The notes under the pieces are model-generated. The model ran no database searches and had not been told where the DNA came from. It saw only the letters and a list, made by a program, of their open reading frames with translations. This document shows, piece by piece, positions 53,290 to 59,497 of a stretch of DNA of 59,588 nucleotides (positions are counted from its first letter, which is position 1; each line of letters starts with the position of its first letter). Source of the DNA: Pseudomonadota bacterium (GTDB lineage Bacteria; UBA10199; 2-02-FULL-44-16; JBDRGF01); NCBI GenBank assembly GCA_043818055.1, contig JBDRGF010000071.1:1-59588 (forward strand), read 5' to 3'. The translations under genes were made by a program, and so were the position numbers.

Positions 53290-54594
53290 ATGTTAAATAT
53301 TACAAATAAAAAAAGTACAACAGAAGACGCCAATGGATTAGAGCAAAACAAAATATTTTTTAGAAAGAGGCCTATTCAAAAGAATAAATCGTTAAGCTCA
53401 ACCCTCTCTTATAGTAGGCAAACAAAGAGACTTGCATTTCTCCCCAAACTGCAATTTCACCCCTTCCCACTTTTATCTGGGGCGAGTAAAAGAGATACTC
53501 AGAAGAGGGTAGAAGGGTTAATTAAAAGATTGAGGAATAAAAATTGGAGAGTGCGTAAGTCTGCTGCATGGGCATTAGGCGATCTAGGTCCCAAAGCAGC
53601 AAGCGCTGTTCCAGCTTTGATCAGAGCTTTGAAAGATAGAAAAAGTAGAGTACGCAAGAAAGCTGAAAGGGCATTAAGCAGTATCGGCCTTCTTGCTGTT
53701 CCTGCTTTGATCAGTGCTTTGAAGGATAAAAATCAATTTGTAAGCAAAAAAGCTGCGAGAGCATTAAGCAAAATGCCTCCCAACGCCTCCGCTGTCGTCG
53801 TTTTGAGCTTGATCAAAGCATTGAAAGACAAAAAAAGTTATGTTCGTAAAAATGCTGCATGGGCCTTAGGTAAGATCGGTCCTAATTCAGCTACTGCTGT
53901 TCCCGCCTTGATCAAAGCATTGGAAGATAAAGAAAGCTACGTTCGTAAAAGTACTGCATGGGCATTAGGCAAAATAGGTCCCAATGCAGCTAGTGCCGTT
54001 CCTGCTTTGATCAAAGCATTGAAAGATAAAGAAAGCGATGTTCGTAAAAGTGCTGCTAGAGCATTAGGCATGTTAGGTCCTAATGCGGCTAGTGCTGTTC
54101 CTGCTTTGATTAAAGCATTGAAAGATAAAGAAGGCTGGGTTCGTAGAAGTGCTGCTAGAGCATTAGTCATGTTAGGTCCTAATGCGGCAAGTGCTGCTGT
54201 TCCTGCTTTGATCAATTCATTGAAAAGTAAGTATTATGGTGTCCGTGTAAAGGCTGTTAAAGCATTAGGCAAGATAGGTCCCAAGGCTTCCTCTGCTGTT
54301 CCTGGTTTGGTAAGGGTAATGTTGAGAGATAAAAAAACATGGGGGCGCATGTATGCTGCATGGGCATTAGGCAAGATAGGTCCCAATGCAGCTAGTGCCG
54401 TTCCTGCTTTGATCAGAGCATTAAAGGATAGAAGTTGGTATGTACGCGCTGAAGCTGCCACTGCATTAGGCAGAATAGGCCACAAGGCCGCCGCCGCCAT
54501 TCCTGCATTGAAAACAATTTTAAAACAAGATAAAGACTCTACAGTTAGAAGCTCGGCAATCAAGGCAATCATTGAGATAAAACAAAGAAAATAA
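53290..54594 (+). CDS. HEAT/PBS-lyase repeat protein
   Basis: About 11 tandem ~31-aa units VRxxAAxALGxIGPxAxxAVPALIxALKD, with repeats also visible at DNA level. Confidence 0.9.
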   Translation: MLNITNKKSTTEDANGLEQNKIFFRKRPIQKNKSLSSTLSYSRQTKRLAFLPKLQFHPFPLLSGASKRDTQKRVEGLIKRLRNKNWRVRKSAAWALGDLGPKAASAVPALIRALKDRKSRVRKKAERALSSIGLLAVPALISALKDKNQFVSKKAARALSKMPPNASAVVVLSLIKALKDKKSYVRKNAAWALGKIGPNSATAVPALIKALEDKESYVRKSTAWALGKIGPNAASAVPALIKALKDKESDVRKSAARALGMLGPNAASAVPALIKALKDKEGWVRRSAARALVMLGPNAASAAVPALINSLKSKYYGVRVKAVKALGKIGPKASSAVPGLVRVMLRDKKTWGRMYAAWALGKIGPNAASAVPALIRALKDRSWYVRAEAATALGRIGHKAAAAIPALKTILKQDKDSTVRSSAIKAIIEIKQRK

Positions 54595-54786
54595 AACCGT
54601 ACCTCCAAAACAAGTGCGAAGAATAAGGAACTGCTCGGCAACAACCTCTAAGCTGGAAAAAATTGCAAAAATGATCATAATGCTTCATTTCGTACCTACA
54701 CAGTGTAAAATGGGGAATATTTAGCTCAATTAAACGAAATTAATATCTTCCAAAAAACTTTTTAACAGCATTCCATCTAATTCGGG

Positions 54787-55536
54787 GTAGAGTAGAGGGC
54801 AGGTAGAGAAAACTTTAGATATACGCGCCTCTTTCGTTTGGCGGTGCCTCACTAGCTACATCATAGCTTTCAACCAGCCCTCCCTCATCAAACCGTGCTT
54901 GCGGTTTTCCCGCACACGGCTTTCCGATGTTCTTCATCACAAAGCATGCGCCTTCGTCCAACCCGCCGTTGTCGGCACTTGCCTTGCGGTAAAGCTTCCT
55001 CTGTAGCGTTCTGATGTTTTCAGGAGTTGTTAGCATTTCTGCAATCCCCTCATCCTCCGCCCTTCGGTTGCATGAACAAAGTAGAGCTCCTTCCCTTGGG
55101 TAGAGTTATGTTGTCTCTTATCCTCGTGCGGTACTATGAGCCCCTCCGACTCCCGATTTGACCCTGTGCGATTTCGTTTCCTTATACGCATTGGTTGCTG
55201 CTCCTCATGCTTAATCAAATCGGGTCTCCAGCACTGAACTATTTATCTTCTGCAACATGCCGACCCTGCTACCCCGGAAGATCACACTGGCTTTTTTCCC
55301 CCCGTTATCAATGCCTATGTGCTTCGGCCTTCCCCATGTGTCCACTGGGTCGGCATCTCCAAATGAGTTTAACGAGGCTACATATAGGTTCACTTTCGTT
55401 ACGGCCTGCTGCTTTGCCAATTGGGAACTTACGACCGCTGATTGCTCAAACGCCGCTCCCTTGAACTACCGGGGCGCACGGATAATTCCCCGGACGGGAC
55501 TTTAACCCGCTAGATTAAACAGTTGTTACTGCGTAC
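54787..55536 (-). mobile_element. Group II intron with internally deleted RT/maturase ORF
   Basis: 5' GTACG; domain V AAGCCGTGTGCGGGAAAACCGCAAGCACGGTTTGA (AGC triad); 3' end CTACTCTAC; EBS1 loop GGACACA (55337-55343) complementary to 5' exon TGTGTCC. Confidence 0.92.
54937..55036 (-). pseudogene. Fused N- and C-terminal stubs of the intron-encoded protein
   Basis: MLTTPENIRTLQRKLYRKA joined out of frame to VPTTAGWTKAHAL*; no RT or YADD region remains. Confidence 0.8.
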
Positions 55537-55576
55537 GGACACAATACTTAATTCAAATGAATTAAGTATTGTGTCC
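55537..55576. repeat. Perfect 19-bp-stem palindrome (intron target)
   Basis: GGACACAATACTTAATTCA-AA-TGAATTAAGTATTGTGTCC; its left flank TAATTCGGG lies beyond the intron at 54778-54786. Confidence 0.9.
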
Positions 55577-55608
55577 TCAGATCTAGAAAAAGCTTTCAGT
55601 CACGGAGC

Positions 55609-56544
55609 TTAAAGGTCGGAGTTTTTAGACAGACAACTTGGCAACATTATAAGTCTATTGAATGTCTGTGCAATTGCATCGGTGTCGTTTGAACCAATTA
55701 TAAAGGCTGCGGACTTACATGCGCCATCAGTACAATTTCCCATTGCAAAGCTAACAGGAAAATAGCTAAGCATCCCAACATCATTTCCACTATCACCAAA
55801 AACAATAACATCATCCTTGTCGAGGTTCTTATCTTTAATTATTTCTTTCAAGGCGTTTCCCTTATCAACTCCTTTTGGAACGAGCTGAATCACTGTCGAA
55901 CCACTAACAAGAATTGATGCGTCGTTTCCAATCATCTCTTCAAGTGATTTCTTTATTTCATCAGCATGGCCATCTTCTACTAACAGGGTGATATTAATTG
56001 CCGATCTATTATTTTTTTCCGCTTCATATTTATTAACGCATTCAATTAAATTGCTACACACGTCATTTGATGTTACCCCCCATTTTTTTACGCGCTCGGC
56101 AAGTTTGACGGGAATGTTATCAAGCAGCATTTTTTTAGGATACATAACAATATTGACAACTACATTTTTGTTCTGAGTAAGGACTGCTAAGGCCTTTTGT
56201 GTGACGGATTTTGGAAGGGTGATTTTTCTTAAAATATCCTTTCCACTTGAAGAAAAAACTACGCCGCCATTTGATAAGACAATTGGAAGACTGGGCTTTA
56301 TGTCATTCAGATATGGAGTTACCTGTGACAATGTTCTCCCAGTAACAATTCCAATTTTTCCACCACAACCCTCAAAATTAGAAATTGCTTTGATTGTTTC
56401 AGGCCTAATCTCGTGGTTTGAACCAAGAGATGTTCCATCTAAATCTAAGTAAACAGCAGAAAATCGAACCTGTTTATTTTCAGAAAGTGAACAAGCTGAG
56501 ATAATCACGCAAAGGAAACAAACAACTATTATACTTTTTTTCAT
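55609..56544 (-). CDS. Cof-type HAD-IIB hydrolase with lipoprotein signal
   Basis: MKKSIIVVCFLCVIISAC lipobox-like; DLDGT, TGR, SNGG, VDKG, FGDSGNDVGM, AMGN. Confidence 0.88.
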   Translation of the reverse strand: MKKSIIVVCFLCVIISACSLSENKQVRFSAVYLDLDGTSLGSNHEIRPETIKAISNFEGCGGKIGIVTGRTLSQVTPYLNDIKPSLPIVLSNGGVVFSSSGKDILRKITLPKSVTQKALAVLTQNKNVVVNIVMYPKKMLLDNIPVKLAERVKKWGVTSNDVCSNLIECVNKYEAEKNNRSAINITLLVEDGHADEIKKSLEEMIGNDASILVSGSTVIQLVPKGVDKGNALKEIIKDKNLDKDDVIVFGDSGNDVGMLSYFPVSFAMGNCTDGACKSAAFIIGSNDTDAIAQTFNRLIMLPSCLSKNSDL

Positions 56545-56821
56545 TGTATTCCCTCCCCCTGGTTCCAAAGAATTTACCGATGAACAGCGTCCTCAGGTGT
56601 ATAGTACCAATCTCCTTTTGTATACTCTTTCGTTTTGCCATTTATCGCGGAAGGTTGGTGACGGAGGAAGATTAACTGATTGATAAATAAGGAACAATTT
56701 CAGACGGAGTCAATAAGTAAAAATAACTTTATCAATGTTCATTTTCAGACAACGCGTCCAGAAATCAAACATTCACAAACATCCCAGCACACAAATCACA
56801 ACAATATCAACAACAGCATCC

Positions 56822-56837
56822 TGGCATAATTATTGCT
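56822..56837 (+). promoter_or_regulatory. sigma54 -24/-12 promoter upstream of the ORF6N gene
   Basis: TGGCAT-AATTA-TTGCT (GG-N10-GC). Confidence 0.6.
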
Positions 56838-56919
56838 TCTAAGTAGAAAAGGACTGAACAACGGATAAGCTAAAATTTTGATATTCTAATTTTCTATTTT
56901 AAAAGAGAAAGATAGCTTC

Positions 56920-57447
56920 ATGAAGCAAACAGATTTGATTATCCCTGGATTTATCGAAAAGAAAATTTACTTTATTCGAGAGCACAGAGTCATATTGGAT
57001 TCAGACTTGGCTGAGCTCTATGAGGTTTCGGTGAAGATTCTAAATCAGGCCATTAAACGTAATAAGTCGCGTTTTCCAGCTGATTTCATGTTTCAGTTAA
57101 CAAAGGAAGAAGATCAATCTTTAAGGTCACAATTTGTGACCTTAAACACGGGGCGAGGGCAGCATCGAAAATATCTTCCGTATGCCTTCACAGAACAGGG
57201 CGTTGCTATGCTATCAAGCGTCTTAAAGAGCAAGCGTGCTATTCAAGTCAACATCGAAATCATGAGAACCTTTGTTAAATTACGAGAATTAATATCATCA
57301 CATCGAGGTCTTGCACAAAAATTGAATGCGCTTGAAAAACATTACAACTATAAATTTAAAATTGTATTTGATGCAATTCATGAACTCATGACTCCGCCAA
57401 CTCCGAAGAGGAGAAGAATAGGATTTAAAGTTGACGATAAGAAATAA
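56920..57447 (+). CDS. ORF6N-domain DNA-binding protein
   Basis: VILDSDLAELYEV, NQAIKRN..RFPADFMFQLT, PYAFTEQGVAMLSSVL, RRRIGF. Confidence 0.92.
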   Translation: MKQTDLIIPGFIEKKIYFIREHRVILDSDLAELYEVSVKILNQAIKRNKSRFPADFMFQLTKEEDQSLRSQFVTLNTGRGQHRKYLPYAFTEQGVAMLSSVLKSKRAIQVNIEIMRTFVKLRELISSHRGLAQKLNALEKHYNYKFKIVFDAIHELMTPPTPKRRRIGFKVDDKK

Positions 57448-57509
57448 TCGGTTCGTGTGCTTGATCGCAAAATAGACCCGACCGTCTAATTCCACTCCAC
57501 ACCAAATAT

Positions 57510-57545
57510 AAACAAGAAAACCCTCGAATGAGGGTTATCTTGTTT
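57510..57545. terminator. Bidirectional-type terminator hairpin
   Basis: AAACAAGAAAACCCTC-GAAT-GAGGGTTATCTTGTTT. Confidence 0.65.
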
Positions 57546-57600
57546 CTGTTCGAGGACTAGGATTGACTGCGCTTGCCTTCGGCGATGCTCGTCCAATGTT

Positions 57601-57663
57601 TAATTCGGGGGACACAATACTTTATTCAGTGCTAAAACTAGAATTAAGTATTGTGTCCCCCGA
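57601..57663. repeat. Intron-free copy of the palindromic element
   Basis: TAATTCGGGGGACACAATACTTTATTC...GAATTAAGTATTGTGTCCCCCGA. Confidence 0.9.
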
Positions 57664-57760
57664 TCAAATCTTTAGTCTCCGAAAAATCCACACTCACGGG
57701 CAGTTTCGAAAAGCAAAATAGAATATAACCCATATATTCAGGGAGCTTGACAACAAAAAC

Positions 57761-59497
57761 ATGTGTGATAAGTCTACCTTAGTAGGGGGAGCAAGGGCGA
57801 TAAAGGAGCGAAAAAAGATGCTTCCCACAAAAGAGACCAACCACAATAAAAACCGCTTTCCCATTCACCAGAGTTCTAAGATTCGTCTGTCTGCAGGAAA
57901 ATTAAAGCTAAGTCCTATGGGGAAAGAGCGTCACACCAACTTGAATCCCAAAGGGCTCCCCTGGGTGAGCCAACCAGTAAAACTAGCAGCTAATCGCAAA
58001 ACTGGAAAAACCACTGTAAGAAAAAAAAGTGCAAAACAAGGATTCAAAAGTCCAATACTATGGGATGGTTTCTCTGTTGCCTTCTCAATGAAGGTTCTCA
58101 TAACGGAAGAACATTCAAACGATCTGAAGAAGTTGCTAAGCGCAGAGAAGTACAGTCGTGACATGAAACTAGATCGTTTTTCAAAGCCAGAAAAAGGGAA
58201 AATTTCAGAAAACCCACTGCTGGTAGGTATTAGGTTTAGCACGGGAGTAAAAACGAGCGACAATCACCATGCCTTTTCCCTAAGTTATAGCTATTTCCCA
58301 TCTAAAAGATCTTTGCATTTTGGCAATTTTTCTTTTGAAGGTTTGGAGATGAAGAGAACCGGACACCAATGGGGAATCGGCTATTCATATCGCTTTTTTC
58401 ACAATATTCCCATAACAGTAGAGAAACCTGATGATAAGCTTTACCTCTCCTTTGGTGCAACCTCAGCCTTATCATTCGGAATGTCCTCCTATGATTTTAC
58501 CACTGCTTTTCCTTCTAATAAAGAGTACATAGATCAGGACAATATTTGGTACATGGGGGGATTTATAGGCGCTGAGTTGTCAATAGGTCACCCCTCGTTT
58601 AAATTTTTCGTCAGACCAGGTTTTTCCTTGGGATTTACTTTAAACAACAGCCCGAATTTTTATATCAAAAGTGGCACTCCAAGCGTTGCTTTTGTCCTAT
58701 TAATGGGCATGCGTTTTTTAGAATATAATCGCGCTTTTTTTCCCTGGAATCTTTTCAATAAAAAAACACAAATTAAAACTACTCCTACAATCACCTCTTC
58801 CAAAAAGAAAAAAAGCAAACGCAGTTGGAAGAGGAGGAAAAAGAGGTATTATAACTACTTTGAGAAAATACCATCCACATTTTACACTGGCATCGTTTAT
58901 GGTCCTGATCGTCAGCAAACAACAGTAACTATAAAACGTGACATAAGAATTACCAGACAACGAATAATCTTTAAAGCCGGAACAAAACTTACCTTCAGAA
59001 AAGGCGTTCTCGTTACTGCAATATTATCCAAGGATCACATCATCAATGGAATACCTTGTAAAAAAGGGGGAGAGGTTCAGTTCCATACAAACGGTAATAT
59101 TAAATCCACCACGCTTTCAAAAAACCATATTTTTTTCATTCGCGATAAAGAAATGTCCGGCAAGGCGGGGACCAAAGCTGAATTTAACAGTGATGGCAGC
59201 GTTAAATCCTTCACACTCTCAAAAAAACACACCGTCCATGGGATATCCTTCGAAGCGAGGACAAAAATACGTTTTGACCAACAGAAAACCTTAGATTTCG
59301 AAACCTTAGAAGTATATACAATAAACTCTTACAAACTCTCTTCTGCTATCCTCTCCAAGGAACACACTATTCAGAAAATTCTGTGCAAAGCTGGAAGAGA
59401 GGTGCGATTTGACAAAGAAGGGAAACTTTGTAGTTACGAAATTGTTCCTAAGGAGCTGTCACAAAATAACTTGAGGTTCTTTGATAATCTGATATAA
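57761..59497 (+). CDS. Hypothetical protein: basic N-terminus, beta-strand-rich (barrel-like) middle, C-terminal beta-repeats
   Basis: Alternating aromatic/polar strands; repeats such as AILSKDHIINGIPCKKGGEVQF..NG.IKS.TLSK.H. Start may be ATG 57818. Confidence 0.65.
   Translation: MCDKSTLVGGARAIKERKKMLPTKETNHNKNRFPIHQSSKIRLSAGKLKLSPMGKERHTNLNPKGLPWVSQPVKLAANRKTGKTTVRKKSAKQGFKSPILWDGFSVAFSMKVLITEEHSNDLKKLLSAEKYSRDMKLDRFSKPEKGKISENPLLVGIRFSTGVKTSDNHHAFSLSYSYFPSKRSLHFGNFSFEGLEMKRTGHQWGIGYSYRFFHNIPITVEKPDDKLYLSFGATSALSFGMSSYDFTTAFPSNKEYIDQDNIWYMGGFIGAELSIGHPSFKFFVRPGFSLGFTLNNSPNFYIKSGTPSVAFVLLMGMRFLEYNRAFFPWNLFNKKTQIKTTPTITSSKKKKSKRSWKRRKKRYYNYFEKIPSTFYTGIVYGPDRQQTTVTIKRDIRITRQRIIFKAGTKLTFRKGVLVTAILSKDHIINGIPCKKGGEVQFHTNGNIKSTTLSKNHIFFIRDKEMSGKAGTKAEFNSDGSVKSFTLSKKHTVHGISFEARTKIRFDQQKTLDFETLEVYTINSYKLSSAILSKEHTIQKILCKAGREVRFDKEGKLCSYEIVPKELSQNNLRFFDNLI

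Follow-up and report, generated by a model that had tools for sequence, protein, structure and literature searches.

How does a group II intron that has lost most of its reverse transcriptase (RT) gene come to interrupt a palindromic repeat of which an empty copy lies 2 kb away, and does such an intron find its target by a DNA hairpin or by base pairing? We analysed this question for contig JBDRGF010000071.1 of a Pseudomonadota bacterium (NCBI GenBank assembly GCA_043818055.1), whose 59,588 nucleotides are called the window in the following. The window carries an intron of 750 nt in one arm of a palindrome. We consider it probable that this intron, a class-F-like IIB intron without endonuclease, retrohomed by base pairing into the arm of a TIRYT/TIRtron repeat, and that the copy in the window is now stranded.

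The intron, its guide sequences and its target arm

Two Rfam models matched the minus strand, group-II-D1D4-6 at 55262-55503 (75.9 bits) and Intron_gpII at 54787-54924 (49.4 bits, domains 5 and 6). The intron starts with GTACG from position 55536 and ends with CTCTAC up to 54787. Excision of 54787-55536 rebuilds a sequence that agrees with the element at 57601 in 22 of 22 letters (26 of the first 27), whereas about 3e-7 exact 22-mers would be expected by chance in the genome. The right ends of the occupied and the empty element agree in 24 of 28 letters. The first-pass annotation of this DNA had described a group II intron with exactly these ends, and the Rfam matches together with the rebuilt site confirm it. 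A catalytic domain 5 (D5) and a bulged A in domain 6 (D6) are present as in group II ribozymes, and 27 of 90 consensus pairs show compensatory change.

Terminal D5 loops of 5 nt, an alpha-prime element in the terminal loop of the domain Id3 stem-loop and a long structured D6 have been described as traits of IIE and IIF introns (PMC3753933). All three were found here; the conserved alpha-prime-like AACGG occupies the loop that closes a covarying stem, with the alpha pairing assigned by eye. The full-length relatives of the intron (1910-1991 nt) mostly encode an RT-maturase of 442-445 amino acids. The relatives' proteins share 48-51% identity with the one encoded at the Ni.ha.I1 coordinates (class F g3) and 35-38% with a class-C-like RT. 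Pfam analysis of the 120 homologues listed revealed only RVT_1 and PF08388 and no endonuclease domain. Judged from these structural traits and from the protein identity, the intron appears to be a class-F-like IIB intron. It resembles the described class F introns, Ni.ha.I1 (g3) as well as Pe.ca.I3 and the Geobacter sp. M18 intron (g4) (PMC3552965, PMC3753933), in all these features and in the possession of two exon-binding sites, EBS1 and EBS2. The relatives of 1985-1991 nt with deltaproteobacterial hosts match g4 in Table S2 of PMC3552965, a likeness in length and hosts alone. The window intron differs from these introns in its 5' end GUACG, in the loss of the RT and in its target, a TIRYT repeat arm, while Ni.ha.I1 is listed in an IS4 transposase.

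In the window copy GGACAC in the EBS1 loop can pair with GTGTCC at the end of the exon. Six pairs of the EBS1 pairing proposed in the first-pass annotation are thus retained; the seventh is incidental, because 32 of 33 relatives have an A at this position of the intron whereas the exon varies at -7. A first set of relatives was collected by a metagenome scan with an intron-internal 19-mer as the sole criterion. The 65 loci obtained gave, together with the window and locus L022, 67 5' ends at 50 distinct sites. L022 was the one true relative found in a scan of GTDB for junctions, which returned also one chance match in a coding region (L021). The EBS region was readable in 42 of the 67 5' ends (33 distinct exons), and the 25 that were cut or rearranged were left out of the covariation analysis; at L027, L057, L076 and L083 the introns are broken or rearranged by other DNA within the first 200 nt. 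A second, independent GTDB set comprised 30 loci, of which the alignment placed 27 5' ends, 26 of them new. A viral scan gave 10 loci, one with a palindrome.

Both guides co-vary with the exon. Using the 33 distinct intron-exon pairs and 20000 permutations, the variable positions of EBS1 scored 3.48 as compared to 2.58 in permuted pairs, and the core of EBS2 2.42 as compared to 1.40; none of the 20000 permutations reached the observed value in either case. The EBS2 signal was confined to one register, with 12 other offsets between 0.73 and 1.52, and it survived the collapse of the data to 17 clusters (core 0/20000, longest run 38/20000). Covariation of EBS1 was replicated in the GTDB set (45/20000). 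The first-pass annotation had found no EBS2 match, but an EBS2 loop is present. Positions 55366-55368 of the EBS2 loop pair with exon positions -10 to -12 in the window copy, and these three consecutive pairs explain why EBS2 had been missed.

The arm that the intron interrupts is identical with the terminal repeats of Y1 transposase genes. In the rebuilt as well as in the empty copy it begins with GGGGACAC and thereby contains the outer-end motif GGGGWSAS, the consensus described for terminal inverted repeats in TIRYT/TIRtron elements (PMC3733652; 10.1101/279083). These elements are Y1-transposase genes whose end repeats also stand alone, as dimers and in clusters (PMC3733652; 10.1101/279083); mobilisation by the transposase is not demonstrated in the accessible text of PMC3733652. 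The window arm itself occurs at locus L125, from the class of the host, as inverted arms 777 nt apart around a Y1_Tnp gene, and at L115 a Y1 gene lies between two dimers. It was present in 18 of 401 genomes of the phylum of the L022 genome (backwards control 0); in the phylum of the window host, 6 of 92 other genomes contain a 17-mer of the arm. Since the arm flanks Y1 genes elsewhere, the palindromes in the window can be understood as repeat dimers left without transposase. In contrast to the TIRYT/TIRtron elements, with their singles, dimers, clusters and flanked Y1 genes, the window genome has just two dimers and no adjacent Y1 gene. The genome contains just 2 Y1 matches in 2.9 Mb, and neither of its two Y1 genes is flanked by the repeat. 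In five arm-bearing genomes no match to domain 1 of the intron was found, and arm-rich genomes are often free of the intron. At L111, L099 and L095 the repeat arm forms tandem clusters with short repeated tails.

Within the host genome the repeat is rare. All four exact matches to a 13-mer of the arm belong to the two palindromes of the window, two matches with one mismatch lie on another contig in a region without palindrome, and the extended target pattern occurs only twice. Contrary to the assumption of the first-pass annotation, the element is thus not dispersed in this genome, and the occupancy survey suggested there is left with two palindromes and one intron to score. In the occupied palindrome a 2-nt spacer separates perfect arms of 19 nt; the predicted fold has 18 bp and a 4-nt loop. 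The stem of the empty copy is longer and extends 5 bp past the equivalent insertion point. Hence the site lies at the foot of a perfect stem because the outer end of the far arm has drifted; the proposed insertion at the 3' foot of a perfect 19-bp stem is correct for the length of the arms, while the fold comprises 18 bp and the position at the foot reflects this drift. Neither palindrome was among the 3 terminator-like sites in 54500-57800, which led us to reject an intrinsic terminator. Features of attC sites are R and L boxes with extrahelical bases and a nearby integrase; the occupied stem is perfect and has no extrahelical bases.

Loss of the RT gene and possible mobility of the short form

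The window copy was 80-85% identical to its 1.91-1.99 kb relatives over nt 1-556, and the alignment resumed at nt 557. This break at nt 556/557 shows that about 1.23 kb of the RT gene were removed in one step. The junction contains a microhomology of 3-4 nt, and the 73-aa RT remnant had no Pfam match. The intron had been called ORF-less (without open reading frame), which is correct as far as a full RT gene is concerned; the gene is internally deleted, and its start and end remain fused.

No cognate or related RT and no other ends of the window intron were detected elsewhere in the assembly, which is 93.6% complete. Its two RTs were rejected as helpers, one being a class-C-like intron protein of 36% identity and the other not belonging to an intron. 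Among 60 genomes of the same order or class only matches of 40-49 nt were found, in 4 of them. The loss of most of the RT gene, the absence of a helper from the assembly and exon-binding partners enclosed in an 18-bp hairpin suggest that the window copy is probably stranded, a poor splicer and itself inert.

Could the 750-nt form instead be a mobile mini-intron that was brought in trans by a full-length relative? D1, D5 and the base of D6 with the branch A are intact in the window copy. In addition, two ORF-less relatives, L043 (796 nt) and L075 (785 nt), have one common, diverged and nearly gap-free deleted domain 4 at different sites. They form a candidate trans-mobile mini-intron lineage and make trans-mobility plausible for these introns; for the window copy this is an extrapolation. 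Its own deletion junction is known only from the window locus, that is, from the window and from metagenome contig L054, which represents the same locus with 99.9% identity. Furthermore, the intron is single-copy in the assembly, the best RT encoded there is the one with 36% identity, and the empty twin has remained unoccupied. We therefore regard arrival as a mini-intron as rather unlikely, and infer that the deletion followed the insertion. ORF-less IIB introns of Thermosynechococcus elongatus, which are moved in trans (PMC8643678), have likewise kept the ribozyme and lost the RT gene; the window assembly differs in that no cognate helper intron was found.

Insertion sites of the relatives

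At the 50 distinct sites of the first set the exon ended with TG[AT]CC in 40 cases and with STSWCC in 33. Both exons were available for 17 sites; all of these have C at +1, 14 have C at +2, and the full reverse complement of GGGGWSAS is rebuilt in 10. Each position from -17 to -14 is A or T in 43-48 of the 50 sites. A partner arm within 100 nt was present at five sites (shuffle mean 0.19) and absent from the other 45. Seven further sites have a partner arm at a distance of 148-841 nt, which gives 12 of 50 in all. The GTDB set contained a nearby partner arm in 3 of 26 sites, the remaining 23 being without. Insertion of these introns is therefore independent of a nearby stem. At L033 and L158 the intron occupies a terminal repeat that belongs to an intact Y1 gene, the partner repeats being at distances of 755 and 717 nt, and at L043, L044 and L145 it is located no more than 80 nt from a Y1 gene or a DnaA-type helix-turn-helix (HTH) tail. 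Changed EBS1 sequences were found at matching changed exons in L056, L024 and L028. Many sites (L025, L034, L057, L071, L073 and L078) adjoin toxin-antitoxin-type or similar small mobile genes (PIN, PemK, HicA, nucleotidyltransferase, DUF5615, Gp49/HTH).

For the window intron we propose that a ribonucleoprotein without endonuclease would reverse-splice into the repeat arm, probably in single-stranded DNA at a replication fork; a bias towards the lagging strand has been described for class F introns (PMC8919778). EBS1 would pair with exon positions -1 to -6, EBS2 with about -10 to -13 and, by the convention for IIB introns, EBS3 with the C at +1, while the RT probably reads the AT-rich stretch from -17 to -13 and the C at +2. 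The hairpin would be a by-product of two arms placed head-to-head and would not be needed. It may even be a hindrance: in the predicted fold the intron-binding sites IBS1 and IBS2 pair with the far arm with a probability >0.99, and the predicted energies are -25.3 kcal/mol for the hairpin and -9.7 kcal/mol for EBS1-IBS1, so that the stem competes with the guides of the intron. The lineage as a whole may favour repeat arms and retune EBS1 and EBS2 to arm subfamilies, since such arms offer harmless intergenic landing sites common to many taxa. The argument for specialisation builds on the conserved unpaired positions, on the partner arms (12/50) and on the adjacency to Y1 genes (5/75 non-window sites). 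The annotation had postulated specialisation on a repeat family that is neither attC nor terminator. The preference of the lineage for such repeats is borne out; the family already has a name, TIRYT/TIRtron (PMC3733652).

Several observations weigh against retrohoming into TIRYT arms as a specialised process. A conserved EBS1 alone would force TG[AT]CC exon ends whatever the target, so that this criterion is partly circular; the 8-mer GGGGWSAS occurs 516 times in the genome; and for most sites only the motif marks the target as a repeat. Of 75 non-window sites, only 5 have a neighbouring Y1 gene or HTH tail, many of the contigs being short, and the distant partner arms were counted without a shuffle control. 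The GTDB set showed TG[AT]CC in only 15 of 26 sites and STSWCC in 9, several distant 5' ends being possibly misplaced, and its EBS2 covariation was not significant (1592/20000, n=10). Related introns are not independent of each other, which inflates the permutation tests, and EBS2 of the window copy reaches just three consecutive pairs. A helper could be missing from the incomplete assembly, and neither splicing nor homing was observed in contigs of public runs.

Some of these points fit an explanation without true specialisation, in which any intergenic site matching EBS1, EBS2 and EBS3 is used and TIRYT repeats merely match, the insertions being harmless. Many sites are indeed without partner arm or Y1 gene in the DNA examined, the exons of L024, L056, L071, L161 and L163 deviate from the motif, and the 7-mer target occurs 130 times in the genome. 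We consider this explanation unlikely, because conservation extends to the C at +2 and to the A/T positions outside the pairing, because a Y1 gene or HTH tail directly adjoins five sites in spite of the scarcity of Y1 matches in the window genome, and because the W and S positions of the published consensus accommodate both EBS1 variants. At the other extreme, the lineage might be an obligate hitch-hiker of TIRYT elements that retunes EBS1 and EBS2 for each subfamily and always enters a few bases inside the outer GGGG, with single-stranded DNA or a nick made by Y1 replacing the endonuclease for reverse splicing and cDNA priming, and with ORF-less mini-copies behaving likewise in trans; this we regard as quite improbable. 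Class-C-like homing by IBS1 and a DNA stem without EBS2, the mechanism of the first-pass annotation, has become very improbable and is largely refuted: the window copy and 7 of 75 other sites lie in perfect or near-perfect palindromes, which is above chance, EBS2 is dispensable for splicing of IIE/IIF introns in vitro (PMC3753933) and a hairpin could expose or stall single-stranded DNA, yet most sites have no nearby stem, EBS2 co-varies with the exon, and IBS1 is buried inside the stem. On contig C30 of the same assembly, by contrast, a class-C-like intron follows a hairpin and T-run, and its exon end is unpaired. The first-pass annotation had itself named two observations that would refute its model, homologous introns at sites without the palindrome and an EBS2-IBS2 pairing that accounts for targeting, and the relatives provide both.

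The comparison with group IIC in general leads to the same distinction. Introns of group IIC, which include terminator-targeting and IIC-attC introns, have no EBS2, carry a CGC triad in a short D5 and are inserted on the 3' side of a stem. The window intron resembles them in its intergenic position beside a hairpin and in the missing endonuclease; it differs in the co-varying EBS2, in IBS1 lying within the stem, in the AGC triad of D5 and in its mostly stemless relatives.

Genomic context and significance

Coordinates of the features in the window
Feature	Position	Strand	Evidence or remark
Group II intron, IIB / class-F-like, RT gene internally deleted	54787..55536	-	750 nt; Rfam, rebuilt empty site, alignment of relatives
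EBS1 GGACAC, terminal loop of covarying stem	55338..55343	-	consensus fold; covariation with exon -1 to -6
EBS2 loop, unpaired in consensus fold	55361..55372	-	register-specific covariation
Fused remnant of intron-encoded RT gene	54815..55036	-	about 1.23 kb lost between 54981 and 54980
Domain 5, AGC triad, 5-nt terminal loop	54890..54922	-	Rfam and fold
Domain 6, long (about 97 nt), branched, base intact; bulged branch-point A at 54793	54790..54886	-	fold
5' exon end; IBS1 55537-55542, IBS2 core 55546-55548, both within hairpin arm	55537..55548	-	
3' exon start, IBS3 = C at 54786; outer end of interrupted repeat arm	54778..54786	-	
Occupied palindrome, head-to-head dimer of TIRYT-type terminal repeats, 18-bp stem	55537..55585	.	
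Empty palindrome, same family and orientation, two unoccupied candidate target arms	57601..57668	.	
HAD-family hydrolase gene	55609..56568	-	Pfam Hydrolase_3, E 4.5e-51
ORF6N-domain gene between palindromes	56920..57447	+	Pfam ORF6N, E 2.8e-34
HEAT-repeat protein, tandem near-identical repeats, converges on intron 3' end	53290-54594	+	
578-aa ORF, repetitive C-terminal part, directly after empty palindrome	57761-59497	+	no Pfam match

The HAD hydrolase gene, encoded on the same strand, ends 73 nt before the intron. The intron may therefore be transcribed, with this gene as the likely source of a read-through transcript. Together with the ORF6N gene it lies between two directly oriented repeats (55586-57600), which could represent a repeat-bounded cassette. 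Contigs of two DNA runs, each belonging to a different study and one perhaps derived from the source sample, span both intron junctions. Contigs of one RNA and three DNA runs contained no intron-skipping joint and no empty allele, a type of data that cannot show absence. The intron pieces of the RNA run differ in letters, among the matches listed, and come from relatives. One contig contained a joint skipping 55582-57640, with one side of just 22 letters; this joint was treated as unreliable.

The assembly contains further group II introns. An identical 3' end of another intron is located at the ends of six contigs (C51, C75, C101, C140, C151 and C162; L006-L011). Its D5 combines a CGC triad with a 5-nt loop, and its D6 is short; ACAA and differing flanks follow in each case. 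Body and RT of this intron are absent from the assembly, and it is probably a recently expanded, collapsed repeat. The class-C-like intron at C30:1-1890 (L002) encodes an RT of 467 aa and lies directly after its hairpin and T-run; two further 3' ends, one of them degenerate, were found at the ends of C23 and C126. At L003:186-2571 a 511-aa RT with a YRDD motif, which is not intron-like, overlaps the end of a 288-aa ORF, possibly as a defence-type RT pair.

Several aspects of the window intron have precedents in print, namely introns hiding in mobile elements (PMC7306698), IIB introns adjoining attC-like stems (PMC7923331), specialised introns (PMC12584367) and ORF-less introns mobilised in trans (PMC8643678). 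A parallel in strategy is RmInt1 (class D) in ISRm2011-2 (PMC1802570; PMC7306698), likewise a IIB intron without endonuclease that uses a mobile element as a multi-copy safe target. Here, by contrast, a non-coding end repeat takes the place of the transposase gene as target, and the guide is adjusted to different repeat subfamilies. Within the searchable literature, with subscription journals, the Zimmerly database and the exons of named class F introns largely outside its scope, we found no report of group II introns homing to TIRYT or REP-like repeats. The main texts of PMC3733652 and 10.1101/279083 make no link between TIRYT and group II introns, the word 'intron' occurring zero times in the former and once, in an unrelated context, in the latter. 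The suggestion of the first-pass annotation that the relationship of intron and target is possibly undescribed thus stands within this literature.

Terminators and attC sites would be joined by TIRYT repeats as a third non-coding safe harbour of bacterial group II introns, and the analysis marks these repeats as a widespread and little-studied element. EBS2 is dispensable for splicing of IIE/IIF introns in vitro, and a role in homing has been proposed for it (PMC3753933). Its covariation with the DNA target fits this proposal and indicates that EBS2 is still kept matched to the target. The natural series of matched intron and target pairs makes the homing rules of class F introns directly testable.

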